Source: Eubacteriales bacterium (GTDB lineage Bacteria; Bacillota; Clostridia; Oscillospirales; CAG-272). From it: a stretch of DNA of 47,567 nt. The notes beneath the pieces are model-generated. The model was given only the letters and a program-made list of their open reading frames with translations, was not told where the DNA came from and made no database searches. The position numbers were made by a program, and so were the translations under genes. Below are positions 2,979 through 41,539 of the stretch, in pieces. The number at the start of each line of letters is the position of its first letter. Within the stretch, counting starts at the first letter, position 1. The stretch spans positions 1 to 47,567 of the forward strand of contig JAZUBG010000074.1 in the NCBI GenBank assembly GCA_045638405.1, in the 5' to 3' direction.

Positions 2979-4127
2979 TTAAACTTTTTCACCTGCGGCA
3001 TAAACCGCTTCGATATTAACTTCTTTCTTTGAGTCAATAATAATAAGGTCAGCTCTTAACCCCTCGGCAATCATACCGCAAACACTGTCAAGATGAACCA
3101 TCTTAGCGGGATTTAAGGTTGCAGCAGGAAGAGCTTCCTCAAGAGAGAGGTCACAGAACCTCATAAAGTTCTTAAGTGCAGTATGTAAGTCAAGCGTACT
3201 GCCTGCGATGGCACCCTCAGCGTTAACTGCTTTACCGTCCACAACGAACACTTTCTGTCCTGCGATAGAATATTCGCCGTCGGTAGCACCGGTTGCCTCC
3301 ATGGAATCGGTGATAAGCACAAGTCTGTCGGGGCTCTTGATACGCTGAAGCATCTTGACCACAGCGGGATTGACATGGAATCCATCGCAAATAACTTCAG
3401 TATAAGCGTCACTGAGAAGTGCCGCTGTGATGTTACCGGGCTCTCTGTGGTGAATGGGACGCATAGCGTTAAAAGTATGTGTAAAAGCAGTTGCCCCGTT
3501 TTCAATAGCCGCAAGCGCTTCATCATAGGTAGCGTCACTATGGGCGATTCCTAGTGTTCCGCCGCGGGAGATAACAGCATTATAGAAATCCTTGTCGGCA
3601 AGTTCAAGCGCAGCTGATACATGGAACGGTGCGGGAAGCATTTTGTCTATAAATTCATTTATCTCAGCCGCATCGGGCTTAGCGAGAAGATGGGTTGCAT
3701 GAGCACCACGTCTCTTTTCGCTGAGGTATCTTCCCTCAAGATGTACACCGCCGATGGTAGCGGTGCCGCCCTTCTCGTCTCGGTTAGCCGCGATGGCGTC
3801 CATGGAAGCAAAGAGCTCCTCTTTGGTAGCAGATGCTAAAGTCGCCATGAATGTGGTAGTGCCCACCTTTGCATAGGAGTCGCGAAGCTCACGAACTCCG
3901 TCTGTATCGGTTGTATTGAAGTCGTGCAGTGTTCTTCCGTGAGAGTGTACGTCTACGAATCCGGGGATTATATATTTACCGGAGCAATCAACGATCTCGT
4001 CGGCAGCAAGTATATCAACTTCCTCTTCTATTCTGCTTATCTTCGTGTCGTCGGTAAGGATATCGGCACGAATAAACTCTTTTCTTTCTGTATCGTAGAT
4101 CAAGCCGTCACAAAACAGTCTTTTCAT
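2979..4127 (-). CDS. nagA: N-acetylglucosamine-6-phosphate deacetylase
   Basis: Amidohydrolase motifs DVHSHG, GVHLEGRYLS, IAHSDATYDE and THTFNAMRP. The ATG at 4127 has a GAGG SD; the ORF-track start at 4139 is a GTG with no SD. Confidence 0.85.
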   Translation of the reverse strand: MKRLFCDGLIYDTERKEFIRADILTDDTKISRIEEEVDILAADEIVDCSGKYIIPGFVDVHSHGRTLHDFNTTDTDGVRELRDSYAKVGTTTFMATLASATKEELFASMDAIAANRDEKGGTATIGGVHLEGRYLSEKRRGAHATHLLAKPDAAEINEFIDKMLPAPFHVSAALELADKDFYNAVISRGGTLGIAHSDATYDEALAAIENGATAFTHTFNAMRPIHHREPGNITAALLSDAYTEVICDGFHVNPAVVKMLQRIKSPDRLVLITDSMEATGATDGEYSIAGQKVFVVDGKAVNAEGAIAGSTLDLHTALKNFMRFCDLSLEEALPAATLNPAKMVHLDSVCGMIAEGLRADLIIIDSKKEVNIEAVYAAGEKV

Positions 4128-4197
4128 ACTATACCTCACTAAAAATATTACTCTTTGAATTATAACAGATTTATCCTGAAATTACAACACCAAGGCG

Positions 4198-8358: not shown

Positions 8359-10119
8359 CTATTTATCCTCAGTATGTAAAAACTGGCTTTCGTAAATAGT
8401 ATTGTAAAAACCTTTCTTATCAAGAAGCTCTTTATGGGTTCCCGTTTCTACAATATGACCGTCATTCATAACGATAATCAGATCTGCATTCTTGACGGTT
8501 GAAAGACGATGAGCTACAACAAAACTCGTGCGATCTGCTGTCAGCTTATCAAAAGCAGCCTGAATCATTCCTTCTGTTCTGATATCAATAGATGAAGTCG
8601 CTTCATCCAGAATAAGAACAGGAGGTAAAGCAAGCATTACTCTCGCAATGGAAATCAGCTGTCGCTGGCCTTGAGAAAGCGTTGCACATTCATTATCAAC
8701 AGCAGTATCGTAACCTTTAGGAAGACGCTTTATAAACGAATGAGCATGGACCTGTTTTGCCGCAGATACAATCTCATCAAAAGATGCATCAGGTTTTCCG
8801 AGAGCTATATTTTCCGCGACTGTTCCTTTCTTGATCCAAGTGTCCTGAAGTACCATTCCATAGTTTTGACGTAACTCTTTTCTTGATATAGAATGAATAT
8901 CAACACCATCAAGATAAATATTACCGGAATTTGGTTCATAAAAGCGCATAAGCAAATTGATAAGTGTTGTTTTACCGCATCCGGTGGGTCCGACAATGGC
9001 TACCATCTGTCCCGGTTCAACAGTTATATTAAAATCCTCAATAAGCGGTTTGTCTTTTACATATGAAAAACAGAGATCGCAGATTTCGACTTTGCCCTTT
9101 ATCCCGCATTCAAAGCATTCCACTGAACAGTTTTCAGTTTCCGACGGAGTGTCAATAAGTTCAAAAATTCTGCTTGCGCAGGCAAGCGCATTCTGAAATT
9201 CCGCTATAACCCCCGATATTTCATTAAACGGTTTTGTATACTGATTTGCATAACCAAGGAGACACACCAGAATTCCAACGGAAATTTCACGTGAAGGCGG
9301 AAGAACAAGAATAGCTCCCGCAAGTGCAACAAGTGCATATATTACTCCGTTAAGAAAACGAGTGGAAGGATTAACAAGTGAAGAATAAAATATTGCGCCG
9401 ACAGAAGCCTCGCGAAGTTCTTCATTTGTATTTTCAAACTTTTCAACAATTTTTTCTTCAATGCAGAAAGCCTTAATTGTTTTTGCAGTTGTTATACTTT
9501 CTTCTACTACAGCGGTTTGAATTTCTCTTGCTGACGCTTGTTTTCTGAACAGTTTAAATGTTCTTGTAGCGACAAACTTTGATATAAGAATAGACCCGGG
9601 TGTCAAAACGATAACAATAAGCGCAATTTTCACGTTCAGCAGTAACATAAAAATCAAAGTGCCTATAATTGTCATCAGACCTGTAAATAACTGAGTAAAG
9701 CCCATGAGTAAACCGTCCGAAAAAACATCTACATCTGCAATTACTCTGTTAAGCATAGCTCCGTGACTGGTAGAGTCAATATAAGACACAGGAAGTGCCT
9801 GAATTTTCGAGAAAGCATCTGTACGGATTTTTCTGACAATGCTGTAAGTCATTCTGTTGTTGATAACGCCTATGACCCACTGAACACCGGCAGTTGAAGT
9901 AACCAGCATTGCTATGAGTGATAACTTGCCGGTAACGCCTTTTATGTCAACACTGTCTTTTCCGGTAACAAGGTCAATAGCCTGCCCCAAAACGATAGGA
10001 ACGTAAAGCGTCATAGCAACCGCAACCGCTGATAATACCAACGTAATCAATACAAGTCCTATATGTGGACGAATATAACGTAAAACTCTTTTCAGAGTAC
10101 CCGGTTTCTTCATTGTCAT
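8359..10119 (-). CDS. ABC exporter half-transporter (TMD-NBD), the subunit with the catalytically competent NBD and a degenerate signature
   Basis: Walker A GPTGCGKTT, signature LSQGQRQL (degenerate), Walker B LILDEATS, H-loop VAHRLST. The start MTMKKPG at 10119 abuts the upstream stop at 10121-10123. Confidence 0.9.
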   Translation of the reverse strand: MTMKKPGTLKRVLRYIRPHIGLVLITLVLSAVAVAMTLYVPIVLGQAIDLVTGKDSVDIKGVTGKLSLIAMLVTSTAGVQWVIGVINNRMTYSIVRKIRTDAFSKIQALPVSYIDSTSHGAMLNRVIADVDVFSDGLLMGFTQLFTGLMTIIGTLIFMLLLNVKIALIVIVLTPGSILISKFVATRTFKLFRKQASAREIQTAVVEESITTAKTIKAFCIEEKIVEKFENTNEELREASVGAIFYSSLVNPSTRFLNGVIYALVALAGAILVLPPSREISVGILVCLLGYANQYTKPFNEISGVIAEFQNALACASRIFELIDTPSETENCSVECFECGIKGKVEICDLCFSYVKDKPLIEDFNITVEPGQMVAIVGPTGCGKTTLINLLMRFYEPNSGNIYLDGVDIHSISRKELRQNYGMVLQDTWIKKGTVAENIALGKPDASFDEIVSAAKQVHAHSFIKRLPKGYDTAVDNECATLSQGQRQLISIARVMLALPPVLILDEATSSIDIRTEGMIQAAFDKLTADRTSFVVAHRLSTVKNADLIIVMNDGHIVETGTHKELLDKKGFYNTIYESQFLHTEDK

Positions 10120-10120
10120 A

Positions 10121-11851
10121 TTACTCCTCAACACTGTTAGCAGAAAACTGAAGATCGTGAATTTCACGGTAAGGTATACAGTTACAATAAAGTTCGTCAT
10201 GCGAACCTATGCCGATAATCTCTCCGTCATCAAGAACAATAATTTTATCAGCATCCAAAATAGCTGATGTACGTTGTGATACGATGAAAGTAGTATGCTC
10301 ATAAGGTAGTGAACGAATAGCACGTCGCAAAGCAGCATCCGTAGTGTAATCAAGTGCGGAAGAACTGTCATCAAGGATTAGAATTTCAGGTTTTCCCACA
10401 AGTGCTCTTGCAACAGTAAGTCTCTGTCTTTGTCCCCCTGAAAAATTCTTACCCATCTGATCGGAATAGGAATCAAGTCCATCCTTCTTGTCAAGAATAA
10501 CCTTATCAACACAAGCAAGTTTGGCCGCTTCCATAATTTCCTCGTCGGTAATGTTTTGATCACGCCAATTAAGATTTTCTCTGATCGTATCTTTAACAAG
10601 TGTAGCTACCTGAGGAACGATACCGAACCGTTTTCTGAGTTTAATTCTGTCAATTTCCGATACGTTTACACCATCAATAAGTATTTCGCCTTCTGTGGCT
10701 TCATAAAATGCAGGGATCAGATTCACAAGAGTCGTTTTTCCGCTTCCCGTAGCACCAATGATACCAACTGTTTCTCCGGCATTTACGGAAAAAGAAATAT
10801 TACTGAGTGAATCTTCGCCGGCTGATTCATATCGAAACGAAACGTTTCTGAATTCAACTTTGGGAAATCCGATTTTTGTTTCGGGGTGTACTTCTGTTCT
10901 GAACTCTCCTTCAACACCGTCAATTACAGTTTGAACACGTTGACCACATGCAATTGCTTTAGTAATTGTAATTATAAGATTAGCTAGTTTGACGAGTTCA
11001 ACCAAAATCTGTGTCATATAGTTGTAAAGTGCAATAACTTCACCCTGTGTGAGATTGCCAAGTTTAACATTGACAGCACCGCGATAGATGAGAAGGATTA
11101 TAGCTCCGTTGACTATTAGATACGTGAGAGGGTTCATAAGAGCAGTAATACGTCCGACAAACTTCTGAGACTTTTCGAGTCTATCAGCATTAAAGTCGAA
11201 GCTTTCCTTTTCAGATTCTTCTCTTCGGAAACCTCTCAGAATACGGACACCGTCTATATTTTCACGTACATTTCCCGTAACTGCACTCAGTGAATTCTGC
11301 ACCTTTTTATAAAGCGGTACTGTACCGAGAATTATAGCAAATACGATTACTGACAAAACGGCGATCATAGCAGTAAAAATAAGAGCAAGTCGTGTATTAA
11401 TAGTAAAAGCCATGATCATAGCACCGAAAACTATACACGGAGAACGCATAAACAGTCTAAGTGTAAGATTTGTTCCGGTTTGAATCTGATTGATATCGGA
11501 GGTCATATGAGTTATCAATGAAGATGTTCCGGAACGATCAAGTTCAGTATATGACATATGCATAATCGTAGAAAACAGCTCACTTCGGATTTTGGAAGCA
11601 AATCCGACTGATGCTTTGGCAGAAAAATACTGAGCTATCACAGAGGCGGTAAAACCAACAAAGCTTAGTATAATCATAATAACCGCCATCTTTATAATGT
11701 GCGATTTGTCAGATCCCGCAATACCGATGTCTATAATACTGGTAACTACGAGAGGAACGAACAGTTCAAAGAGCGCTTCAAGAAGCTTGAAAGTGGGAGC
11801 AAGAATTGTCTCTTTTTTGTACTCACGAAGCAACCTGAGAAGTTTAAGCAT
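10121..11851 (-). CDS. ABC exporter half-transporter (TMD-NBD), the subunit with degenerate Walker B and H-loop
   Basis: Walker A GATGSGKTT, signature FSGGQRQR, Walker B ILILDDSSS (D replaces the catalytic E), H-loop FIVSQRTS (Q replaces H). The ATG at 11851 has a G-rich SD, and the promoter lies inside the longer ORF-track call. Confidence 0.9.
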   Translation of the reverse strand: MLKLLRLLREYKKETILAPTFKLLEALFELFVPLVVTSIIDIGIAGSDKSHIIKMAVIMIILSFVGFTASVIAQYFSAKASVGFASKIRSELFSTIMHMSYTELDRSGTSSLITHMTSDINQIQTGTNLTLRLFMRSPCIVFGAMIMAFTINTRLALIFTAMIAVLSVIVFAIILGTVPLYKKVQNSLSAVTGNVRENIDGVRILRGFRREESEKESFDFNADRLEKSQKFVGRITALMNPLTYLIVNGAIILLIYRGAVNVKLGNLTQGEVIALYNYMTQILVELVKLANLIITITKAIACGQRVQTVIDGVEGEFRTEVHPETKIGFPKVEFRNVSFRYESAGEDSLSNISFSVNAGETVGIIGATGSGKTTLVNLIPAFYEATEGEILIDGVNVSEIDRIKLRKRFGIVPQVATLVKDTIRENLNWRDQNITDEEIMEAAKLACVDKVILDKKDGLDSYSDQMGKNFSGGQRQRLTVARALVGKPEILILDDSSSALDYTTDAALRRAIRSLPYEHTTFIVSQRTSAILDADKIIVLDDGEIIGIGSHDELYCNCIPYREIHDLQFSANSVEE

Positions 11852-11881
11852 AGTCCCCCCAAAAAATATATATTTGATATT

Positions 11882-11911
11882 ATTATAGCACTTTTTAAGT
11901 GTAAAAGTCAA
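11882..11911 (-). promoter_or_regulatory. SigmaA-type promoter for the ABC pair
   Basis: On the minus strand: TTGACT, 18-nt spacer ending in TGc, then TATAAT. Confidence 0.6.
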
Positions 11912-11990
11912 TAGGAATAGAACACACATAACAAGTTATAAGAAATTAAATCATTACTGCATAATATTTTGAAGAATATTTCATTTCCGC

Positions 11991-17505: not shown

Positions 17506-18660
17506 TTATTTTAAAATAAAACAGGCAAATATTCGTCTTAGCAGTTGAAAATACGTAATTTTATTTACAGTCTCACTTGATTTAATCTCACATTCATATA
17601 TAGTCTTATCTTCTAAAACATATTTTACCTTTCCGACAGTATCACCTTCTTTAATTGGCGCACATACTTTCTCTTTGAGTTCGAATTCTTTTTTTACATT
17701 TTTATTATTATTTCCACTTACAAGTATTTCACAACCGTCATAATAACAGTTAATATATTCTTTAACACCGCCTTTTACTGCAACCTTACCGGCATTGTTT
17801 TTTTTATCAAAATAAACTGAATAAGTGGAGAAACCATAATCAAGTAAAGTCTTAGCTGCATCATTTCTTATGTCTCTTGTCTCCGAACCCATAATTACTG
17901 CAATAAGGTGAAGACCGTTTCTCTCGGCAGTCGCACTGATACAGAAACCTGCTTTTCCGGTTGATCCTGTTTTAAGTCCTGTTGCACCTTTATAAAAACG
18001 GATCAGACGGTTTGTATTGGTCAGCCCGAATGCACCGTTCCTGATACTGTCCATCCAAATGGTAGTGTATTCAAATATTTTTTTATGTCTCATCAGTTCA
18101 CGAGACATGATAGCTATATCTCTTGCACTGGTTACGTGGTTCGTTACGTTATCATCTAGTCCTGTTACATTCTCAAAATTGGTATTTTTCATTCCAAGTT
18201 CTTTTGCCCTTTGATTCATACGTACAACAAATACTTGTTCACTACCACATACTGCCTCAGCCATAGCCACAGCACAATCATTTGCAGAAGCTATTACTAT
18301 ACTTTTCAAAAAATCATTCAACGGCATTGATTCTCCGGCTTCAAGAAACACTTGGGAACCACCCATTGAAGCCGCATACTCGCTGACTGTTATTGTCTCT
18401 TCAGAATCCAGTTCACCTTTATCTATTGCTTCCATGATTATGAGTAATGTCATGATTTTTGTTACGGATGCGGGTGGTAACGGTTCATCCGGGTTCTTTT
18501 CATAAAGATATGTGCCAGTATTGAAATCCATCAAGACCGCACTTTTAGCTGCTACATCAAAATTTTCCGTTGTTGCCGAAGAAATAGCACTAAACGGAAT
18601 TCCGACTGAAAACATATACAAAAGCAGAAAACATATAATCAGGGATAAACTTCTTTTCAT
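17506..18660 (-). CDS. D-alanyl-D-alanine carboxypeptidase (peptidase S11, PBP5-like) with signal peptide
   Basis: SVTK (SxxK), SAND (SxN) and KTGST (KTG) motifs, plus a hydrophobic N-terminus MKRSLSLIICFLLLYMF. Confidence 0.9.
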   Translation of the reverse strand: MKRSLSLIICFLLLYMFSVGIPFSAISSATTENFDVAAKSAVLMDFNTGTYLYEKNPDEPLPPASVTKIMTLLIIMEAIDKGELDSEETITVSEYAASMGGSQVFLEAGESMPLNDFLKSIVIASANDCAVAMAEAVCGSEQVFVVRMNQRAKELGMKNTNFENVTGLDDNVTNHVTSARDIAIMSRELMRHKKIFEYTTIWMDSIRNGAFGLTNTNRLIRFYKGATGLKTGSTGKAGFCISATAERNGLHLIAVIMGSETRDIRNDAAKTLLDYGFSTYSVYFDKKNNAGKVAVKGGVKEYINCYYDGCEILVSGNNNKNVKKEFELKEKVCAPIKEGDTVGKVKYVLEDKTIYECEIKSSETVNKITYFQLLRRIFACFILK

Positions 18661-18783
18661 AATACACCTCAAAATAATTACAAAGATTACATTAAATATA
18701 TATTCACTGAATAATCAAAAATACCAATTAAGTAGATCAATGTAAAAAAACAATATTTTTTTGCAAATATAACGTTATTTTTA

Positions 18784-18812
18784 TTGACATTGGTGCGGAA
18801 AAGATGTATTAT
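18784..18812 (+). promoter_or_regulatory. SigmaA-type promoter for the ABC/DUF1854/ABC operon
   Basis: TTGACA (18784-18789), 17 nt, TATTAT (18807-18812). Confidence 0.6.
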
Positions 18813-18887
18813 TATACTGATTTTATTAAAAGGTATTTTAAGTAACAATTCTAATCAAAGGATTACGAACGGGAGACATTACATTAT

Positions 18888-21305
18888 ATGCCAAAACACA
18901 AAAACGATATGCACGAAACGGATATTCACGAACATCACGAACACAAGCCTATAATTCCCGACTCTCTGAGCGGGGCTCTTAAACTTCACAATATAATAAA
19001 AGACGACATCGAGTTTTTTGCTACCACTGACATTTCACCTGAAAGAATCAGATGTGATTCTTTTGTGATTACAACAAAAGATTCGATTTTTATTCTTTCC
19101 GGCACTCTCGGACTTGACAAATCCTCAAAATTATACTTCCTTCGCCGCAAAAAATTAAAGGAAGTTTTCTTGGAAAACAGCTTCACTGAATTTAAGAGGG
19201 CTGATTACGTTAAATTCTCATTTGAGGAACAAATTTCAAGTGCAGACCTTACCGCAACTGATGAGAATGATGTTACTACAGTAATTGCTTCTGCTACAAA
19301 TTCTCTTAAAGAACAGCTGAGAATGATGTGTGATCACCTGACACCTCACGAAGAGGCCGAAGGTGAAGAGTCTCCTCATGGTATGCCTCCTCACCATGGG
19401 AAGCGTCCTCCTTTCGGTCCCGGCGGTCCTCACGGTGGCCCTCATGGAGGCAGAGAGAAAATGTCACCGAAAGGACCCCTTTACTGTCCCAAATGTGGCA
19501 AAAAATTCTCTGATCCCAGACGCAGAGTATGCCTCCACTGTATGGAAAAAGGTAAGATCATTAAGCGTATCTTCAGCTTTATTATAAAATACAAATTCCA
19601 GGTTATAACGACGATCGTTATTCTGGTCGCAACCGGTGCGCTCGGTATTATCACACCGTACATCAGTTCAGGATTCTATTACGATGAAGTGCTTAATAAA
19701 GCAGGTAAATTCTACGGTGAGATCATCATGGTTCTCTCACTTATCATAGGTACTAAGATCCTCAACACGTTTGTTACGATTATAAACAACCTTATCAACG
19801 CAAGGATCGCAGCAAATCTTCAGAATGATCTAAAAAACGTGATTTTTTCATCAATCGAGCGTCTTTCTCTCAGATACTTCACTGACAAACAAACCGGCGC
19901 TCTTATGACTCAGGTCAATAACGATGCCAGAACTATCTACTGGTTCTTTACAGGAGGTATACCCTATTACCTCGTAAACATCGTACAGATCATCTGCGTT
20001 GTTATTATCATGTTTATCATGAAGCCTGATCTTACCATCCTCTATCTTCTTATGGTTCCCCTTATCTTTGTCATGACCAAGAAGATGTTCACATCAATGG
20101 GTAAGTTCCACGGTATGAGATTCGTTTCATCCCGTAAGCTTAACGCACTTATCAGTGACACATTCTCCGGAATGAGAGTTGTAAAGGCTTTCTCTAAGGA
20201 AAAGGACGGTTCAAAACGTTTCAAGGTCGTAAACGACAAAGCGGCTGTCGCTGACAGAATCGCGTCGAGATACAGTACTATACGTTTCCCAATCACAAGT
20301 ATTCTCATGCTTATCAGCAACTCTCTCATCCTCGGAGTAGGCGGATGGATGGTAATGCAGGGCAAGTTCAGCTACGGTGAGCTTCTTACGTTCACAGCTT
20401 ACACCGGAATGATCTACAGTCCCATGGAATCCTTCGTACATATGACGTATGAGGCTACGGATAGCCTTAATGCTATGAGCCGACTTGTTGAAGTTATGGA
20501 TGCAGAGTCCGACATTCTCGAAGCTGAAGCGCCTGTGAAAAAGGACGTGCTTGACGGTGAAGTTGAATTTTCACACGTTGATTTCGGATATGATAAATCG
20601 AGAACTATCCTCCATGACATCGACTTCAAGATAGAAAAAGGAACGATTCTCGGCGTTGTTGGACACACCGGTGCAGGTAAGTCCACTCTTGCAAACCTTC
20701 TTCTCAGAATGTATGACCCTGACAAGGGTGAGATCAAAGTAGACGGAATTTCCCTCCGCGACATCGATACCGCAAGTCTCAGAAACAACATAGCTATCGT
20801 ATCTCAGGAAACCTACCTCTTTGTAGGTACTATCCTTGACAACATCAAGTACGCAAATCCCAACGCTTCTTACGAAGAAATAATCAGAGCGGCAAAGATT
20901 TCCGGTGCTCACGATTTCATCATCAAGCTTCCAGATGGTTATGCAACAAAGATCGGCTTCGGTCAAAGAGAACTTTCCGGTGGCGAACGTCAGAGACTTT
21001 CAATCGCAAGAGCTTTGCTCAGAGATCCTGCAATTCTGATCCTTGACGAGGCTACTGCCGCGATGGATACTCAGACCGAAAGAAAGATCCAGACAGCTCT
21101 TGAGATTCTGATCCAGGGTAAGACAACCATCATGATCGCCCACCGTCTCTCTACCCTCAGAATGGCTGATTCTCTAATCGTTCTCAAAGACGGTAAGATC
21201 TGCGAAAGCGGTAGTCACGATGAACTTATCAGAGCAAAGGGCGAATACTATAAGCTTTACACACTTCAGCTTGCAGCGCTTAAAAATGTAGGCGTAGAAG
21301 GCTGA
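18888..21305 (+). CDS. ABC exporter half-transporter (TMD-NBD) with a ~230-aa N-terminal cytosolic extension: His-rich tracts, a beta-rich segment and a Cys4 zinc ribbon
   Basis: C-terminal 570 aa: 6-TM exporter domain plus NBD (GHTGAGKST, LSGGERQR, ILILDEATAAMD, IAHRLST). N-terminus: HETDIHEHHEHK, DSIFILSG, HGMPPHHGKRPPFGPGGPHGGPHGG, CPKCGKKFSDPRRRVCLHC. Confidence 0.85.
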   Translation: MPKHKNDMHETDIHEHHEHKPIIPDSLSGALKLHNIIKDDIEFFATTDISPERIRCDSFVITTKDSIFILSGTLGLDKSSKLYFLRRKKLKEVFLENSFTEFKRADYVKFSFEEQISSADLTATDENDVTTVIASATNSLKEQLRMMCDHLTPHEEAEGEESPHGMPPHHGKRPPFGPGGPHGGPHGGREKMSPKGPLYCPKCGKKFSDPRRRVCLHCMEKGKIIKRIFSFIIKYKFQVITTIVILVATGALGIITPYISSGFYYDEVLNKAGKFYGEIIMVLSLIIGTKILNTFVTIINNLINARIAANLQNDLKNVIFSSIERLSLRYFTDKQTGALMTQVNNDARTIYWFFTGGIPYYLVNIVQIICVVIIMFIMKPDLTILYLLMVPLIFVMTKKMFTSMGKFHGMRFVSSRKLNALISDTFSGMRVVKAFSKEKDGSKRFKVVNDKAAVADRIASRYSTIRFPITSILMLISNSLILGVGGWMVMQGKFSYGELLTFTAYTGMIYSPMESFVHMTYEATDSLNAMSRLVEVMDAESDILEAEAPVKKDVLDGEVEFSHVDFGYDKSRTILHDIDFKIEKGTILGVVGHTGAGKSTLANLLLRMYDPDKGEIKVDGISLRDIDTASLRNNIAIVSQETYLFVGTILDNIKYANPNASYEEIIRAAKISGAHDFIIKLPDGYATKIGFGQRELSGGERQRLSIARALLRDPAILILDEATAAMDTQTERKIQTALEILIQGKTTIMIAHRLSTLRMADSLIVLKDGKICESGSHDELIRAKGEYYKLYTLQLAALKNVGVEG

Positions 21306-21344
21306 CACGTCAGCATTTAACCAACTAATTTTTTGGAGAAAACA

Positions 21345-21875
21345 ATGGATATAACAAGAGAAAAAGAACTACTTGAAGCAGCAGGCATCGTTTATCTGAC
21401 GTCTGAAAATTGTAAATTCGAGAAAAAAGGTGACTTTGTCAGCCTTACTTTGTTCGGAAATGAAGAAGAAAAAAACTACTCACGCGTCAATCTCCACCGT
21501 TTATTCCCGTTTGATAAACCTTACAATTATATTTCCGTTCTCGACAGCGATTCCGTGGAGATCGGTATTGTCTCTGACTTGGAAATTTTCGAAGAAGATA
21601 CCCGCGAGCTCTTAAAGCACGAGCTTGACAGAAAGTATTACGTTTGTGAGCTTACGTCAGTTACATCCGTAAGAGACCGTTTCGGTTTTTCATACTGGAA
21701 AAACCAGAGCAACGGTGGAGAGGTTGTTTTCACGATCAGAGATACTCACAACAGCCTTAGAGAGAATATTGACGGTAAAATATCAATTACAGATATCGAC
21801 GGAAACAGATATACTCTTCCTCCGCTTGAAAAACTGGATAAAAAAAGCCGCCGACTTGTAGAACTCTATCTGTAA
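21345..21875 (+). CDS. DUF1854-family protein (ABC-transporter-associated, function unknown)
   Basis: LHRLFPFD...SVEIGIV...ELDRKYY...FGFSYW...ITDIDGNRYTLPPLEKLDKKSRRL matches my recollection of the Pfam DUF1854 pattern. GGAG SD sits 6 nt before the ATG at 21345; the track start at 21333 is a TTG. Confidence 0.7.
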   Translation: MDITREKELLEAAGIVYLTSENCKFEKKGDFVSLTLFGNEEEKNYSRVNLHRLFPFDKPYNYISVLDSDSVEIGIVSDLEIFEEDTRELLKHELDRKYYVCELTSVTSVRDRFGFSYWKNQSNGGEVVFTIRDTHNSLRENIDGKISITDIDGNRYTLPPLEKLDKKSRRLVELYL

Positions 21876-21892
21876 AACGAGGTAAACAGATA

Positions 21893-24112
21893 ATGTACAA
21901 TATAAATGACCTTGTATCCGTTGCGATCAAAGCGAACGTTTGCACGGATCCAAAAGATCTGCGGATAATTTTTCCGTATGATCTTCACTCTGATGACAGT
22001 ATTAAGTCAGACGGTGGTATTGTAGCGGCAACAAACGACACAATATTTGTTTTAAGTGGCGACAAAGTCAAGAAAACTATTGTTAACTGTGAAGTTGAAA
22101 GCATTGCAATAACAAACGGTGTTGGCTGTATCTTCATTGAAGCTAAGATGAAGGACGGTTCCGAACAGGTAATATGCCGCGGAAGCGGTTCCAGCGTTAA
22201 GCTTTTCAAGGAAGCCGGAAGCGATCTCATCCGACTCGTTGACGGTAAATTCAATGGTGAGATAAAGGAATACGCAAGCGGAAACGCCTGTCCCAAATGC
22301 GGACGTCCTCTCCTCCCAGGAAGTTCTACTTGTATGCGCTGCACAGGAAAAAGCGCGTACGTTAAAAGACTTCTCAAGATTGCCTATCCCTGGAGATGGC
22401 TGATTATACTTTCGGTACTGCTTTATTTTGTAACGGCTGTTATTGGTCTTGTTCCTCCTATCCTCAATCAAAAGTTGGTAGACGACTTTATTCAGCCTAA
22501 CGTAAAGCTGACACTCACAACGTCTGTTCTTATAGGTTTTGTAGGTGTCATTGTTTCAATGCTCATCGTTAACCTGATAAACAGAGGAATTTCAGTTATT
22601 CGTTCTCTTCTTATGATCGATGCTGGAGCGGGTATTATTACAAAGCTGAGACAGATGACCTTCGATAAGATTCAGTCGCTGTCCATAGGAAGAATCAATG
22701 CGCGTACTTCGGGAGAACTTATAAACCGAGTTTATTCAGATACTCAGACGGTAAAAAACTTCCTTGTAAACCAGATCGGTGAGATGATACAGATGGTGGT
22801 TACTCTGATCACCGTCGGAGCTATCCTCTTCGTTTACAACTGGAAACTTGCGCTCCTCGTTCTCTGCCCTATGCCGGTGATCGTTGTAGCAAACCGCTAC
22901 ATAATGCAGAATCTACATAAGTATTTCAAGCTTTCATGGGTAACCTCATCGAAAGCAAGCTCCATACTCCACGATACATTCTCGGGAATCCGAGTCGTAA
23001 AGTCTTTCGGTATGGAGAATAAGGAGATTAACCGATACAAAGAGATCACCGAAAAAGAACGCGAGGTATCCATAAGAAGCGAAAGCTTCGCGGGAAGCAT
23101 CATGCCGATCATCAGCTTCTTCCTCGGAATTGGTGAGTTCTTCATCATGTTCTACGTTGGTAACAAGATCATTGGCGGCGAGATGACTCTTGGTGAAATG
23201 TCTAAGTTCTCGGCATACGTAGGACTTATCTACGGTCCTCTCAGATGGATCTCACGTCTTCCAAATATCATTTCACGTACCGGTACTTCCCTTGTAAAGA
23301 TTTTTGACATTCTCGACGAAGAAAATGAAGTTGAAGACAAGCCCGACTGTGTGAATATCGACATTCACGGCGAAATAACATTTGACGATCTCAGCTTCTC
23401 ATACGACGAAACAAATCCGGTACTTAAGAATCTTTCTCTTACCATAAATCAAGGTGAGATGATAGGAATCGTAGGCCGTTCGGGAGTAGGTAAATCAACC
23501 CTCATAAATCTGGTTATGAGAATGTATGACCCGACTTTCGGTGCAGTTAAAATTGATGGAGTTGATCTACGTGATATATCTCAGGATTCCCTTCGCAGTC
23601 AGATCGGTGTAGTACTTCAGGAGACCTATCTGTTCTCAGGTACCATCTACGATAATATCAGCTACGCTAAAACGGGAGCTACAAGAGAAGAAGTAATTGC
23701 TGCGGCAAAGCTTGCAGGAGCTCACAAATTCATCGTAAAGTTACCTGACGGATATAATACACGTGTAGGAGAGAGAGGTAATACCCTATCCGGAGGCGAA
23801 AGACAGCGAGTTTCCATCGCAAGAGCACTTCTCCGCAATCCTAAGATACTTATTCTTGACGAAGCAACGTCAGCTCTTGATACGGAAACCGAAAAAGAGG
23901 TTCAGGACGTGCTCTATAAGCTGACTCGCGGCAGAACGACTCTGGCAATCGCACACAGACTATCAACGCTCAGAAACGCTGATAAAATCCTTGTGCTTGA
24001 CAAGGGACGTCTTGCAGAATTCGGTCCTCACGACGAGCTTATGGCTCAGAAAGGTATCTATTACGAGCTTGTAATGGCTCAGAGACAGATGTCAAAGATG
24101 TCAAGAAAATAA
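21893..24112 (+). CDS. ABC exporter half-transporter (TMD-NBD) with a ~155-aa N-terminal cytosolic extension: a beta-rich segment and a Cys4 zinc ribbon
   Basis: NBD motifs GRSGVGKST, LSGGERQR, ILILDEATSALD, IAHRLST. N-terminus: LRIIFPYD, DTIFVLSGD, CPKCGRPLLPGSSTCMRC, directly before TM1. Confidence 0.85.
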   Translation: MYNINDLVSVAIKANVCTDPKDLRIIFPYDLHSDDSIKSDGGIVAATNDTIFVLSGDKVKKTIVNCEVESIAITNGVGCIFIEAKMKDGSEQVICRGSGSSVKLFKEAGSDLIRLVDGKFNGEIKEYASGNACPKCGRPLLPGSSTCMRCTGKSAYVKRLLKIAYPWRWLIILSVLLYFVTAVIGLVPPILNQKLVDDFIQPNVKLTLTTSVLIGFVGVIVSMLIVNLINRGISVIRSLLMIDAGAGIITKLRQMTFDKIQSLSIGRINARTSGELINRVYSDTQTVKNFLVNQIGEMIQMVVTLITVGAILFVYNWKLALLVLCPMPVIVVANRYIMQNLHKYFKLSWVTSSKASSILHDTFSGIRVVKSFGMENKEINRYKEITEKEREVSIRSESFAGSIMPIISFFLGIGEFFIMFYVGNKIIGGEMTLGEMSKFSAYVGLIYGPLRWISRLPNIISRTGTSLVKIFDILDEENEVEDKPDCVNIDIHGEITFDDLSFSYDETNPVLKNLSLTINQGEMIGIVGRSGVGKSTLINLVMRMYDPTFGAVKIDGVDLRDISQDSLRSQIGVVLQETYLFSGTIYDNISYAKTGATREEVIAAAKLAGAHKFIVKLPDGYNTRVGERGNTLSGGERQRVSIARALLRNPKILILDEATSALDTETEKEVQDVLYKLTRGRTTLAIAHRLSTLRNADKILVLDKGRLAEFGPHDELMAQKGIYYELVMAQRQMSKMSRK

Positions 24113-24128
24113 TATTTAGACAAATGTA

Positions 24129-24172
24129 TTTCCCGGTAAAACGGTAGATATGACTGCTGTTTTATCGGGAAA
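24129..24172 (+). terminator. Long hairpin after the operon (terminator-like, weak U tract)
   Basis: TTTCCCGGTAAAAC / GTTTTATCGGGAAA 14-bp stem (one G-U) with a 16-nt loop. Confidence 0.5.
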
Positions 24173-24211: not shown

Positions 24212-24240
24212 TTGACAAAACAGTTTTTTTATAGTAGAAT
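24212..24240 (+). promoter_or_regulatory. SigmaA-type promoter of tRNA-Thr
   Basis: TTGACA, 17 nt, TAGAAT, ending 10 nt before the tRNA 5' end. Confidence 0.7.
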
Positions 24241-24250
24241 ACAAGGGTAC

Positions 24251-24322
24251 GCTGGAGTGGCGCAGTGGTAGCGCAATTGATTCGTAATCAATAGGCCGTG
24301 GGTTCAAATCCCATCTCCAGCT
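24251..24322 (+). tRNA. tRNA-Thr (anticodon CGT), no encoded CCA
   Basis: Cloverleaf folded by hand: acceptor GCTGGAG/CTCCAGC, D stem GCGC/GCGC, anticodon stem ATTGA/TCAAT with loop TTCGTAA, T arm GTGGG-TTCAAAT-CCCAT. G1-C72 and C2-G71 fit Thr identity. Confidence 0.9.
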
Positions 24323-24323
24323 G

Positions 24324-24352
24324 AAAAAGCACCGTTTTGGCGGTGCTTTTTC
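24324..24352 (+). terminator. Intrinsic terminator after tRNA-Thr
   Basis: AAAAGCACCG / CGGTGCTTTT stem followed by TCATTTTTT. Confidence 0.8.
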
Positions 24353-24686
24353 ATTTTTTAGAGTAGGTATATACTCTCACTTTAGTTAATCATAAAAAAT
24401 GAAGGCATCCCCTACTCACGGACCATCCACAAAGGAGCCGGTTAAAAGTGCGGGGAATGCCTTTCTAAGTATATGTAAGAAGATGTCAATAGGAAATAAC
24501 CCCTTACATCTGTACCTGACTGAGAGACTATCGAGAGCGCCTGAAACTAAAGATACAGGTGCGATATTCAGTATTCCCTGTCCTTCAACTCTAAGTCAAC
24601 TTTTCAGTAAACCCAAATAACTTATCAATTTGTTAATTATGTCATCATAAACACTTATTTTTCACAAACTTTGTGTTTTTTGATAA

Positions 24687-25864: not shown

Positions 25865-25903
25865 AAATAATTACCGCCTTGATGAAGGCGGTAATTGTTT
25901 TTT
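25865..25903. terminator. Bidirectional terminator shared by the convergent permease and sigma-factor genes
   Basis: AATTACCGCC / GGCGGTAATT stem with T-runs after the stem on both strands. Confidence 0.8.
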
Positions 25904-27566
25904 ATACATTCACAATAAGAGTCGTCAAAGATTTTCTCTGTTCTTCGGTAGGTTCCTTTAGCTTGCCGTTCTTCAGGAGCGTTGTAATGCAGTGTACCAG
26001 GAACCATCCATCAGCGTGGAATATAAACTGCAATTCATATGCTTTAACCTTTCTAAGGTGTGCAGGAACCGATTCCAGTACAGCCTCGGCATAAGGTGCC
26101 TTCAGAGCATCAAACTCAGTCTGATACTTTACCTTGATTCGCTCACCGATGGTAAGGAGTTTATCACGAATCTCTTTGCTTGCCAAAACTATGATCTGCC
26201 ATGCGGATTTGAAGTGACCGTCGTAATCTCCGTTGGTTTTTACACAACCTCGCTCTGCAAGCCATGCATATTCATCCTTTGAAAGACGGTCCTCAAACTC
26301 TCTTTCATAGAGTGAGAGAATACGTTTGGATTCTTCAGAATAATTGAGTCTATAACCATCTCCACGTTCTGACCACTCACTGTCGATCTGCCAAAGAATA
26401 CGCTCACCATTGCCATTCCACATAGGACCGCACCAGTTTCTCATATAAACGTAGTCATCAGGAAGAATCATTTCATCCGGCACTACCGATGCATGATAGA
26501 TATTATGGGCACCATCCGGTCGGATCGTGGCAACCTCTTCAAATGAAATGCTCTCATCCATCAGCTTTTCACCCGACCAAGCTGCTATATAAGGAATCAG
26601 CGTCCATAGGATGAAATTACGGTCCGCTTTAGGAGACTCAGCCAAGGAGATGGGCTCGTCAGTTTGACCACACCAGATGTCCGGATCGTCAAGAATGCCA
26701 GAGGAGGTTAATTCATCATACAGATCGTTCGCAAACAGCTCAGCAGCACGCTTATACATATCGTTCTGCATGGTAAGCAATTCCGCAGTCGGCTCGCTGA
26801 TGATGAAGCCCGTAATATACTTATCCTTATCAGCCTGCAGGAAGCCGTATTCCTCAAGGAATTCAACTTCTGTTTCCACGTACACAGGGGAAACCCCCAG
26901 GTCATCGGCAATCTCGTTAATAGTCTTTGCCGTATTACGCACACAATAGCAGATATTCTGGGCCAATGTGGAACGGAAGAACTCGTCGGGAGATTTTTTG
27001 CCGACGGAACCGTTGATGCCGTAGGAGTGGAATTTAATAGGATTAAATTTAAGTTCACTTGTTTTTCTCATCTTTTCTATACCTCGTTTTAATTCTTTTT
27101 TAGCTTCAAACAAGTGCCACTTGACAGTGCCGAGAGGAATACCCAGTTCCCTGGCAATATCTGCCTGCTTGCGATTCTCAAAGTAATACGCAATTACAAT
27201 TCTTCTTTGCAATTTGGAAAGGTAAGCAATCTCGGTCTGGAGACGACGGATAGCGTCACTATTGTCATCGGTATCCAGCTCAGAGTACGGATCTGCAATC
27301 AGCTCCGCAACCTCATCAATAGAAACACCGATCATGCTCTTAGCAGTATCACGATAATAATTGCTGAGAGTGTTATGGGCGACTGTCCAGATGAATTTTC
27401 CCATATCCGCAACATCGTCCTTTATAAGAAGCGCACGAAAGGCTTTTAAAGCGATCTCCTGCGACAGATCCTCTGCATCGTGGATACTTTTACACCTTTT
27501 CAAAGCAAAGCCGAATATGGGCTTCAGATATTCAGTTATGGTTTTCTCTACGTCTTGTCTGTTCAC
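25902..27566 (-). CDS. Sigma-70 family (ECF-like) RNA polymerase sigma factor fused to a ~380-aa C-terminal domain of unknown function
   Basis: Region 2 (DAEDLSQEIALKAF, FIWTVAHNTLSNYYR) and region 4 HTH (QADIARELGIPLGTVKWHLFEAKKELK) occupy the first ~170 aa. The remainder is soluble and contains a second HTH-like stretch, INEIADDLGVSPVYVE. GTG start with a GAGGTG SD. Confidence 0.8.
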   Translation of the reverse strand: MNRQDVEKTITEYLKPIFGFALKRCKSIHDAEDLSQEIALKAFRALLIKDDVADMGKFIWTVAHNTLSNYYRDTAKSMIGVSIDEVAELIADPYSELDTDDNSDAIRRLQTEIAYLSKLQRRIVIAYYFENRKQADIARELGIPLGTVKWHLFEAKKELKRGIEKMRKTSELKFNPIKFHSYGINGSVGKKSPDEFFRSTLAQNICYCVRNTAKTINEIADDLGVSPVYVETEVEFLEEYGFLQADKDKYITGFIISEPTAELLTMQNDMYKRAAELFANDLYDELTSSGILDDPDIWCGQTDEPISLAESPKADRNFILWTLIPYIAAWSGEKLMDESISFEEVATIRPDGAHNIYHASVVPDEMILPDDYVYMRNWCGPMWNGNGERILWQIDSEWSERGDGYRLNYSEESKRILSLYEREFEDRLSKDEYAWLAERGCVKTNGDYDGHFKSAWQIIVLASKEIRDKLLTIGERIKVKYQTEFDALKAPYAEAVLESVPAHLRKVKAYELQFIFHADGWFLVHCITTLLKNGKLKEPTEEQRKSLTTLIVNV

Positions 27567-39376: not shown

Positions 39377-39724
39377 TACGTACTCCTTTTGAATCTGACT
39401 TTGTGTTAATATTATGTACTCAAAACATTAAAATGTCAACAGTAACTGTAAATATTTTCAGAAATTACATATAAAAACATTGTAAAAATATCTAATGTAT
39501 GCTATACTTGAATTTGTATGTTGGATTTTTTGTGTTGACAGTACTTTCATAGAATGCTTTATCTGTTAATACCGAACTTTATCTGTGTCGAAGTTCAAAA
39601 TCAAGCATTCTCGGCTCGATTTTCAGCAAGTGTTGCGAGAATCCGAAAAGTCACTCCACTCAATGACCGTGAGCCGACCGCATATTTTCCCTACCGTTTC
39701 AGACGGATTTACTTGGAGGTGCAA

Positions 39725-41539
39725 ATGAAAAATAGCTCCAAAATTTCACTGATACGCAAATTCTTAAAAGGCTCCGTTCATCTGTTCATTTTAAGTATGG
39801 CGGCTACTTTATTTGTTTCGATTTTTGAGTTAATCTATCCACAGGTCATTAGACTGCTTACCGACTCAATCATCGGGAACGAGGCGGTTAATAGCGAATC
39901 AATTGCAGGTATTTTTGTAATTAAGACATTTGGGATTGATTTTCTGAAGTCCAATTTGTGGATGGTTGCGGTTATCATTATCGGTTTTGCCTTTTTTATC
40001 GGAATATTTAAATATTTGTCCGGTGTACTAAACACAGCGGCATCCGAAAAACTTACCGAAACCACGAGAAACGCCCTGTTTGACAGAATCGAACATCTTC
40101 CCTTTTCATGGCATACTGCTAATCCTACCGGTGACATTATCCAAAGATGTACATCGGATGTAGAAACACTAAAAAGATTCTTATCTGAACAGTTGACCCA
40201 GGTAGTCAGTACTTTCCTTCTCATCGTGTTTTCCCTTTTCTTCCTTGTGGAAATACATCCGAGATTTGCATTAATTGCAGGACTGTCAATTCCTCTTGTC
40301 GTAGGCTTTTCGGGCGGCTTCCACAAGCTTATCAGCAAAGGCTTTGCAAAGTGTGACGAAAACGAGGGCATTCTTTCTTCCATCGTACAGGAAAACCTCA
40401 CGGGTGTAAGAGTAGTACGTGCTTTCGGACGTGAAAAAGCTGAGATTGACAAGTTTACCGCGCAGAATCAAACATATACAAACACATGGATAAATCTTTG
40501 TAAGGTACTCGCAAGTTTCTGGGCTACCAACGATATTATCTCATGCGTTCAGGTAATGGTAGTTATAGTTACAGGTGTTTACCTCTGCGTCGACGGTAAC
40601 ATAACTGCAGGTGACTTTATCGCAGCAGTTTCCTATAATGCTACTCTCACGTGGCCCGTGAGACGTCTCGGCAGAATGATCTCGGAAATGAGCAAAGCGT
40701 CAATCGCTCTCGGTCGTCTTGGATACATAATTGATTCTGAACCTGAAAAGGACAAAGTTACTGCTGTTTCTGCCGATCTTACAGGTGACATTGAATTTAA
40801 GAATGTTACTTTCTCGTATGATGGCAAGAAAAAGGTTCTCGACAACGTGTCCTTCACCGTTAAATCAGGAACAACCCTCGGTATTCTCGGCGGTACGGGC
40901 AGCGGCAAATCTACCCTCGTTCAGCTTCTTTGCAGACTTTACGAGCTTGGCGCTGACGGAGGTAGTATAACCGTTTCGGGAATCGACGTTAAAGACCTGA
41001 AAGCCAAGTCCATCAGAGACAATATCGGTATCGTTCTTCAGGAGCCTTTCCTTTTCTCAAGAACAATTTCGGAAAATATCGCAATTTCAACCGAAAATGC
41101 GACTGAAGACGATATAAAACGTGCTGTTGAGATCGCGTGTCTTGACAAGGCGATCTCCGAGTTCAAGAACGGATACGACACGGTCGTCGGTGAGCGAGGT
41201 GTAACCCTCTCGGGCGGTCAGAAACAGAGAGTCGCAATTGCGAGAATTTTGCTTCGCGGGACTCCAGTAATTATCTTCGATGATTCTCTTTCTGCAGTAG
41301 ACGCTGAAACTGACTCACTGATCAGACATGCTATCAAGCGAGAACTTGCTAAATCGACCGTTATCATTATCTCTCACAGGATCTCATCCATTATGCACGC
41401 TGACAACATCATCGTACTCGACCACGGTAAGATCGCCGAATCCGGAACGCATAACGAACTGCTTGAGACAGACGGAATCTATAAGAGAGTATTTGATCTC
41501 CAGCACACCGATCATACAACTTATGAGGAGGTGGAGTGA
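39725..41539 (+). CDS. ABC exporter half-transporter (TMD-NBD), the subunit with degenerate Walker B
   Basis: GGTGSGKST, LSGGQKQR, VIIFDDSLS (D replaces the catalytic E), ISHRISS. The ATG at 39725 has a GGAGGT SD. The ORF-track start at 39554 is an unsupported extension. Confidence 0.9.
   Translation: MKNSSKISLIRKFLKGSVHLFILSMAATLFVSIFELIYPQVIRLLTDSIIGNEAVNSESIAGIFVIKTFGIDFLKSNLWMVAVIIIGFAFFIGIFKYLSGVLNTAASEKLTETTRNALFDRIEHLPFSWHTANPTGDIIQRCTSDVETLKRFLSEQLTQVVSTFLLIVFSLFFLVEIHPRFALIAGLSIPLVVGFSGGFHKLISKGFAKCDENEGILSSIVQENLTGVRVVRAFGREKAEIDKFTAQNQTYTNTWINLCKVLASFWATNDIISCVQVMVVIVTGVYLCVDGNITAGDFIAAVSYNATLTWPVRRLGRMISEMSKASIALGRLGYIIDSEPEKDKVTAVSADLTGDIEFKNVTFSYDGKKKVLDNVSFTVKSGTTLGILGGTGSGKSTLVQLLCRLYELGADGGSITVSGIDVKDLKAKSIRDNIGIVLQEPFLFSRTISENIAISTENATEDDIKRAVEIACLDKAISEFKNGYDTVVGERGVTLSGGQKQRVAIARILLRGTPVIIFDDSLSAVDAETDSLIRHAIKRELAKSTVIIISHRISSIMHADNIIVLDHGKIAESGTHNELLETDGIYKRVFDLQHTDHTTYEEVE

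Follow-up and report, generated by a model that had tools for sequence, protein, structure and literature searches.

An ABC exporter operon with PH-like/zinc-ribbon N-terminal modules and a DUF1854 partner in a gut Clostridia genome

Introduction

How ATP-binding cassette (ABC) exporters choose their cargo has been learned from extra cytosolic domains, such as the C39 domain in peptide exporters and the carbohydrate-binding domain of Wzt. Here we describe a three-gene operon, designated A, B and C, in contig JAZUBG010000074.1 of an Eubacteriales bacterium (assembly GCA_045638405.1). The whole stretch of 47,567 nucleotides that was analyzed is referred to as the window, and the host is a gut Clostridia metagenome-assembled genome (MAG). 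A and C are ABC half-transporters with soluble N-terminal extensions, and they flank a DUF1854 protein, B. This arrangement had been pointed out in an earlier reading of the DNA from its letters alone (the original prediction), which we followed up by computational analysis.

The closest described system is the beta-proteobacterial pair represented by the NCBIfam models NF052233 (“cyanophycin metabolism-associated ABC transporter”) and NF052234 (“cyanophycin metabolism-associated DUF1854 family protein”), the only branch of the family that is curated and studied. In Acidovorax and Cupriavidus, the DUF1854 gene is cofit with cphA/cphA' and with the ABC gene, and the ABC and DUF1854 pair was proposed to export an amino-acid polymer (Price et al., bioRxiv 10.1101/072470). 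The original prediction held that DUF1854 is known only as an ABC-associated family; the cofitness study and the two NCBIfam models give it a proposed context. The beta-proteobacterial pair has the same architecture as the window operon, including the N-terminal module at profile positions 10-130. It differs in having one ABC gene, whereas two diverged ABC genes flank the DUF1854 gene here. The host is a beta-proteobacterium there and a gut Clostridia MAG here, and cphA/cphA' are not nearby in the latter.

The heterodimers TM287/288 and TmrAB and the homodimers Sav1866, MsbA and BmrA have a transmembrane and ATPase core like that of A and C, but they possess neither an N-terminal pleckstrin homology (PH)/zinc-ribbon module nor a DUF1854 partner. 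TM287/288 and TmrAB each contain one degenerate ATP site, whereas both sites of the A/C pair are canonical. PCAT- and HlyB-type exporters likewise bear a soluble accessory domain fused 5' of the first transmembrane helix (TM1) of an ABCB-like exporter. That domain has a C39 or C39-like fold, in contrast to the PH-like fold and zinc ribbon here, and the relation is one of analogy, not of membership. Cargo docking, on which the analogy is built, is established knowledge for C39 and C39-like exporters.

That an ABC exporter can depend on PH-domain proteins is known from DdE and DdF, which are required for the ABC-mediated export of the leaderless bacteriocin enterocin DD14. They resemble the modules described here in fold. 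However, they are separate membrane proteins of the bPH_2 type from another family, whereas the PH-like domain in the window is part of the transporter polypeptide and precedes a zinc ribbon. The Pfam family bPH_3 (PF14470) is alike in kind of fold and is reached by 23 of 150 relatives, but not by the window's own modules.

Results

Two ABCB-like half-transporters flank a DUF1854 gene

The operon consists of the following genes.

18888-21305, + strand: gene A, ABC half-transporter of 805 aa (PH-like domain, His/Gly/Pro linker, zinc ribbon, transmembrane domain, ATPase domain)
21345-21875, + strand: gene B, soluble DUF1854 protein of 176 aa
21893-24112, + strand: gene C, ABC half-transporter of 739 aa (PH-like domain, zinc ribbon, transmembrane domain, ATPase domain)

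The three genes are co-directional and separated by gaps of 39 nt (A-B) and 17 nt (B-C). Both outer genes encode complete half-transporters, as had been proposed. A matches PF00664 over residues 240-513 (121 bits) and PF00005 over residues 575-724 (115 bits), and C matches PF00664 over residues 171-450 (159 bits) and PF00005 over residues 511-660 (127 bits). Each thus has a six-helix PF00664 domain followed by PF00005 in a single polypeptide, the layout of ABCB-like (type IV fold) half-transporters. The closest models to the transmembrane and ATPase core are those of ABCB1/ABCB4, TM288, Sav1866 and MsbA; residues 154-730 of C align to TM288 with E 2e-112, the core being aligned end to end. A and C are paralogues, with 36% identity over the region that starts at the zinc ribbon and ends at the C-terminus.

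The first Pfam transmembrane match begins at residue 240 in A and residue 171 in C, compared with residues 31-78 in the window's four remaining ABC exporters, which agrees with the original claim that only A and C carry N-terminal extensions. The D(S/T)IF(I/V)LSG and CPKCG...C..C motifs that the two extensions were said to share are present in both.

An alignment of the six ABC exporters of the window showed that A and C both have canonical Walker A, Q-loop, LSGGERQR signature, ILILDEAT (Walker B with Glu) and AHRLST/H-loop motifs. Judged by these motifs, both ATP sites of the A/C pair are predicted to be catalytically competent. Two further ABC exporter pairs, at 8359-11929 (- strand) and 39554-43353 (+ strand), each have one degenerate ATP site, and the contrast drawn in the original prediction between them and A/C holds in the alignment. 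In each of these pairs, the catalytic Glu is missing from one subunit (LDD/FDD), and the signature of the other is degenerate (LSQGQ or MSTGE); in one subunit, x10121, the H-loop His is replaced by Gln. These two pairs are typical asymmetric heterodimers.

The N-terminal modules combine a PH-like domain and a zinc ribbon

The extensions of A and C are divided as follows.

18945-19337, + strand: PH-like domain of A, divergent, residues ~20-150, assigned by profile homology to the C-type domain
19338-19475, + strand: low-complexity His/Gly/Pro-rich linker of A, residues 151-196
19476-19553, + strand: Cys4 zinc ribbon of A, residues 197-222, CPKCG-x9-CLHC, directly 5' of the TM1 helix
21893-22252, + strand: PH-like domain of C, residues 1-120, with a helix, seven strands and a C-terminal helix (AlphaFold2)
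22286-22351, + strand: Cys4 zinc ribbon of C, residues 132-153, CPKCG-x10-CMRC

The module pairs a bacterial PH domain, divergent and bPH_3-like, with a putative Cys4 zinc ribbon directly before the TM1 helix. We base this assignment on the fold match of C, on the homology between A and C, and on the bPH_3 and zinc-ribbon matches of relatives.

An AlphaFold2 model was built for residues 1-170 of C with 12 homologous fragments as input. It reached a predicted local distance difference test (pLDDT) score of ~90 over residues 11-120, with strands in 25-98 and a helix at 99-116, and shows the seven-stranded beta-sandwich capped by a C-terminal helix that defines PH-like folds. When residues 1-120 were compared with the PDB by Foldseek, the top 50 matches were all of the PH, phosphotyrosine-binding (PTB) or FERM-F3 type with probability 1.00, and the matches include PH, PTB, FERM-F3, TFIIH-p62, Rtt106 and GRK2 PH domains. 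The original prediction had suggested bacterial PH and zinc-ribbon families for the extensions. The fold of the C model fits that guess, and so do the 23 of 150 module-family representatives that match PF14470 (best E 6.8e-6). No match to the C39 peptidase was found by Pfam at the N-termini of A and C, the fold of C being PH-like instead, and no solved ABC structure bearing a PH/zinc-ribbon module was found in PDB searches.

While the N-termini of A and C are only weakly similar by BLAST (E 0.002), the A-type profile and the C/homodimer-type profile align by hhalign with 99.1% probability (E 8e-19, 181 columns), which indicates that both extensions are one common module. The A domain carries a basic insertion of ~23 aa at residues 79-101. 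We considered whether the extensions could be mis-called start codons. This was rejected, because full-length database proteins contain the extensions, which are moreover conserved and have a predicted fold.

The zinc ribbon of A shows weak matches to PF13248 and PF12773, and that of C matches PF13240 with E 7e-4 when the isolated module is searched. Dozens of the 150 representatives match zinc-ribbon families, and the weak Pfam matches to such families are below cut-off. The Cys-x2-Cys...Cys-x2-Cys spacing is kept in 17 of 17 aligned orthologous subunits, even though CPKCG varies among orthologues at the non-Cys positions (CPDCG, CPVCG, CSKCD); in the family alignment A5, three of the Cys residues are invariant and one nearly so. 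The zinc ribbon of A is 69-100% identical within the window clade, except in L012 (46%), and 48% identical in the distant loci L002 and L004. A further match, to PF13597 (anaerobic ribonucleotide reductase NrdD; best E 6e-11), was found in five of the 150 representatives (alignment A6, P0056-P0204) and might stem from cross-matching of the zinc ribbon, from gene fusion or from faulty assembly.

His accounts for 14% of the A linker and 2% of the remaining protein. The His/Gly/Pro-rich composition is kept in six of seven A orthologues, whereas the linker sequence itself is not conserved. The N-terminal tail of A (18906-18947, residues 7-20), HETDIHEHHEHK, is His-rich too. The linker and tail may be a metal-binding element.

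Within the window clade, the PH domains are 32-44% identical, the zinc ribbons 46-88% and the ATPase domains 76-90%, so that the PH domain is the fastest-evolving part of the protein. Such divergence fits a specificity-determining role.

B is a conserved DUF1854 protein

B was proposed to be a DUF1854 protein, and it matches PF08909 (DUF1854) with E 5.9e-31 and 107.5 bits against a cut-off of 26.8, over profile positions 1-128 of 130. The AlphaFold2 model of B (pLDDT 88) has two beta-rich lobes, each ending in a helix. The invariant residues of DUF1854 include R52, F54, P55 and the hairpin D150-x-D152-G-N154-R155-Y. No structural neighbor of B with a TM-score >0.3 was found by Foldseek against PDB and BFVD, no PDB sequence matches DUF1854, and DUF1854 matches no ligand-binding family. 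A tblastn search of PLSDB gave no match to DUF1854 on plasmids. Homology of DUF1854 to the N-terminal module and an internal duplication within DUF1854 were both rejected, as the hhalign probabilities were 1.3% and 0.3%, respectively.

The module and DUF1854 occur together in related loci

We searched 1.84 billion cluster representatives with a profile of the module. With E ≤ 1e-3 as the limit it matched 931 proteins, and with E ≤ 1e-10 it matched 393. This required a profile, as the N-terminus of C used as a single query gave one match, the sensitivity being limited by the word index. In almost all matches listed, the module is N-terminal or close to the N-terminus. Full-length members are 728-930 aa long, and all ten that were scanned are ABC exporters. 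A narrower DUF1854 alignment used as query led to seven genome loci, all in Clostridia MAGs.

DUF1854 is adjacent or fused in 19 of the 20 loci checked. Starting from DUF1854 (L001-L012), all adjoining ABC genes bear the module; starting from the PH domain, seven of eight loci have DUF1854 adjacent or fused, the exception being L015. A single 930-aa protein, P0180, contains in order the PH/zinc ribbon, the transmembrane domain, the ATPase domain and DUF1854. This Rosetta-stone evidence indicates that DUF1854 is part of the transporter on its cytosolic side.

The trio of ABC, DUF1854 and ABC genes is found in the window, L001, L002, L006-L012, L019 and probably L020. A duo arrangement is present in L004, L014, L016, L017 and L018, and a fusion arrangement in L013. 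L001 and L006-L012 show synteny of the trio, and in L002 and L019 it sits in unrelated contexts. In the window clade, the syntenic neighbors are ileS, pgi, an S11 D-Ala-D-Ala carboxypeptidase gene and a CitMHS transporter gene, and all genomes of this clade are gut or rumen Clostridia MAGs. The PF08909 match, the conservation and predicted folding of the extensions and this synteny are the outcomes of the checks on which the original prediction had been made to depend, and it withstood all three.

The S11 D-Ala-D-Ala carboxypeptidase gene (17506-18672, - strand, in the window) is always divergent upstream of the trio in the window clade. In L018 (5523-11210), the PH/zinc-ribbon ABC gene is immediately preceded by bona fide ddl and murF genes in the same direction. 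These neighbors hint weakly at a connection with the cell envelope. After the ABC gene, L018 has DUF1854 and then a gene for a DarA-like cyclic di-AMP (c-di-AMP) receptor, and a c-di-AMP receptor gene is also located 3' of DUF1854 in L004 (7738-10841) and L005. In L015 (10460-11512), a fragment of a QatA-like anti-phage ATPase gene follows the PH/zinc-ribbon ABC gene at the contig end.

Relation to the cyanophycin-associated models

The best curated models are NF052233 for A and C and NF052234 for B. The equivalog cut-off of NF052233 (880 bits) is not reached by A (475) or C (539), nor is that of NF052234 (150 bits) by B (69.6). A and C align to NF052233 only from the zinc ribbon (profile positions 133-137). 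Relatives found by the N-terminal profile align to positions 10-750 of this full-length model of 766 positions, from which it follows that NF052233 already includes the N-terminal module. The original statement that no function or substrate is assigned to such an architecture was thus too strong, as NF052233 covers the module in relatives and NF052234 describes the DUF1854 partner. The operon is a duplicated, predicted heterodimeric Firmicutes branch of a widespread exporter family that databases already recognize, and it does not represent a novel type of system.

The 47.5-kb contig contains no cphA, no cyanophycinase and no ATP-grasp/Mur-ligase fusion, and no cphA-like gene lies within 8-10 kb of any of the ~20 related loci. 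The Firmicutes branch is not linked to cyanophycin synthetase, and the cyanophycin label should not be applied to this locus because no synthetase is found near the window operon or the related loci. The amidohydrolase at 2979-4139, which is the only one in the window, was examined as a possible cyanophycin link and rejected. It is nagA (263 bits, above cut-off) and not an isoaspartyl dipeptidase.

Expression signals and neighboring genes

The promoter and the long hairpin named in the original prediction were both recovered.

18784-18812, + strand: sigma-70/SigA-like promoter, TTGACA-17-TATTAT, 11 of 12 consensus positions
24129-24172, + strand: hairpin 3' of the gene C stop codon, probable operon terminator, 19-bp stem

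The score of the promoter is equalled by one other site only in a 6.2-kb scan. The ATG of gene A lies 75 nt downstream of it and has the ribosome-binding site (RBS) GGGAGA. Gene B has the RBS GGAGA 5 nt 5' of the ATG at 21345, and an alternative TTG at 21333 overlaps this RBS. The hairpin has a folding energy of -29.6 kcal/mol and a z-score of -6.55, with a weak T-tail. A terminator scan found no terminator-like site on the + strand within the operon. No riboswitch or leader RNA was detected in the 5' untranslated region, Rfam significance being reached only by the downstream tRNA, and no convincing small peptide gene adjoins the operon.

That tRNA is a stand-alone tRNA-Thr(CGT) at 24251-24322, with the operon hairpin on one side and the CitMHS transporter gene on the other. 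It has a promoter of its own (24212-24240, 11 of 12 consensus positions) and also its own T-rich terminator (24322-24353). Further downstream, 25902-27566 (- strand) encodes a 554-aa protein in which an extracytoplasmic function (ECF)-type sigma-70 domain is limited to residues 1-170. The other ~380 residues match no family, and the protein may combine a sigma factor with an anti-sigma or sensor domain.

Discussion

We consider it probable that A and C form a heterodimeric ABCB-like exporter with cytosolic PH/zinc-ribbon modules, in which the DUF1854 protein is a third, soluble subunit and the added parts serve cargo selection or gating. Counted for this reading are the domain calls, the PH fold, the homology of A and C, the co-occurrence, synteny and fusion of DUF1854, the cofitness data and the DdE/DdF precedent. 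The identity and architecture of the system are very likely correct as described here. The adaptor or gating mechanism specifically is put forward tentatively.

In such a machine, A would pair with C, and their PH-like domains would flank the transmembrane domains where membrane and cytosol meet, at the place occupied by the C39 and C39-like domains of peptide and protein exporters. The zinc ribbon would tie the PH-like domain to the helix leading into TM1. DUF1854 would bind the cytosolic face near the ATPase domains, and the PH modules and DUF1854 together might recognize or gate a substrate that is synthesized in the cytoplasm and is probably peptide-like or polymeric. Export of this substrate would be driven by ATP hydrolysis at both sites. 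The original prediction had DUF1854 docking on the N-terminal modules as an adaptor. This is plausible, and the near-obligate co-occurrence of DUF1854 and the module fits it.

Several observations weigh against the proposed exporter and its mechanism. The N-termini of A and C match no Pfam domain even at E 10, PH families included; the PH-like fold of A is assigned by homology only, and the zinc-ribbon part of the C model is of low confidence (~60). The placement of DUF1854 on the PH domains is a proposal only, and the sole fusion seen puts DUF1854 C-terminal to the ATPase domain and not by the PH domain. L015 has no DUF1854 in its visible flank, where the sequence ends 1.1 kb downstream. The fast divergence of the PH domain could equally reflect weak constraint. 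No conserved cargo or biosynthetic gene adjoins the system in any of the ~20 loci.

The main rival is an ordinary small-molecule or lipid exporter, MsbA-like or multidrug-like, in which the modules and DUF1854 are a purely regulatory cap, autoinhibitory or ligand-sensing, without contact to the cargo. C-terminal regulatory domains act in this way in MalK and MetN. The nearest relatives of the core (ABCB1/ABCB4, TM288, Sav1866 and MsbA) would suit such an exporter, as would the DUF1854 of P0180, which sits at the C-terminus of the ATPase domain where other ABC systems have regulatory domains. The housekeeping contexts with their absence of biosynthetic neighbors, and the c-di-AMP receptor gene 3' of the pair in L004 and L018, point the same way. 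However, a regulatory cap leaves unexplained both the cofitness with polymer synthetases in beta-proteobacteria and the far faster divergence of the PH domain, and DUF1854 resembles no ligand-binding family. We regard this explanation as unlikely.

A bolder version of the exporter reading would make the Firmicutes system a self-contained, non-cyanophycin exporter. The modules and DUF1854 would then be an undescribed device for cargo recognition or gating, the His-rich linker of A would exert metal-dependent control, and the cargo could be linked to the envelope. The last idea comes from the neighbors, namely the D-Ala-D-Ala carboxypeptidase gene here and ddl-murF in a relative. We give this version a low probability.

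It is also conceivable that the operon is the functional equivalent of the beta-proteobacterial exporter and exports an Asp/Arg polymer, either cyanophycin or one resembling it, that is synthesized through a cphA elsewhere in the genome. A, B and C do find their best NCBIfam matches in NF052233 and NF052234, with the same architecture including the N-terminal module, and the beta-proteobacterial genes are cofit with cphA/cphA' (Price et al., bioRxiv 10.1101/072470). Yet the scores stay far under the equivalog cut-offs, the sole amidohydrolase of the window is nagA, and neither the contig nor the 8-10 kb around the ~20 loci contains a cphA, cyanophycinase or ATP-grasp/Mur-ligase fusion gene. 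We find such a role quite improbable for the Firmicutes operon.

A dedicated exporter of a leaderless peptide or bacteriocin, with PH domains acting like DdE/DdF of enterocin DD14, is very improbable: PH-domain proteins are needed for ABC export of that bacteriocin and the accessory domains stand where peptide exporters have C39, but no small-peptide, immunity or modification gene lies beside the operon, none is conserved in the related loci, and DdE/DdF are membrane proteins of the bPH_2 type from a different family.

The favored exporter with its three kinds of parts belongs to a family of ~930 clusters that combine a PH-like/zinc-ribbon N-terminus with a near-obligate DUF1854 partner, and for which there is one genetic hint on function. 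The gain from the window locus itself is modest, as it is a good representative of a known unknown. What this work contributes is the assignment of the module as a bPH_3-like PH domain and a zinc ribbon, the co-occurrence and fusion evidence, and a caution on the cyanophycin label. The natural fusion to the ATPase domain is a first clue to how the parts assemble, and the domain definition turns an anonymous DUF into a testable three-part machine.

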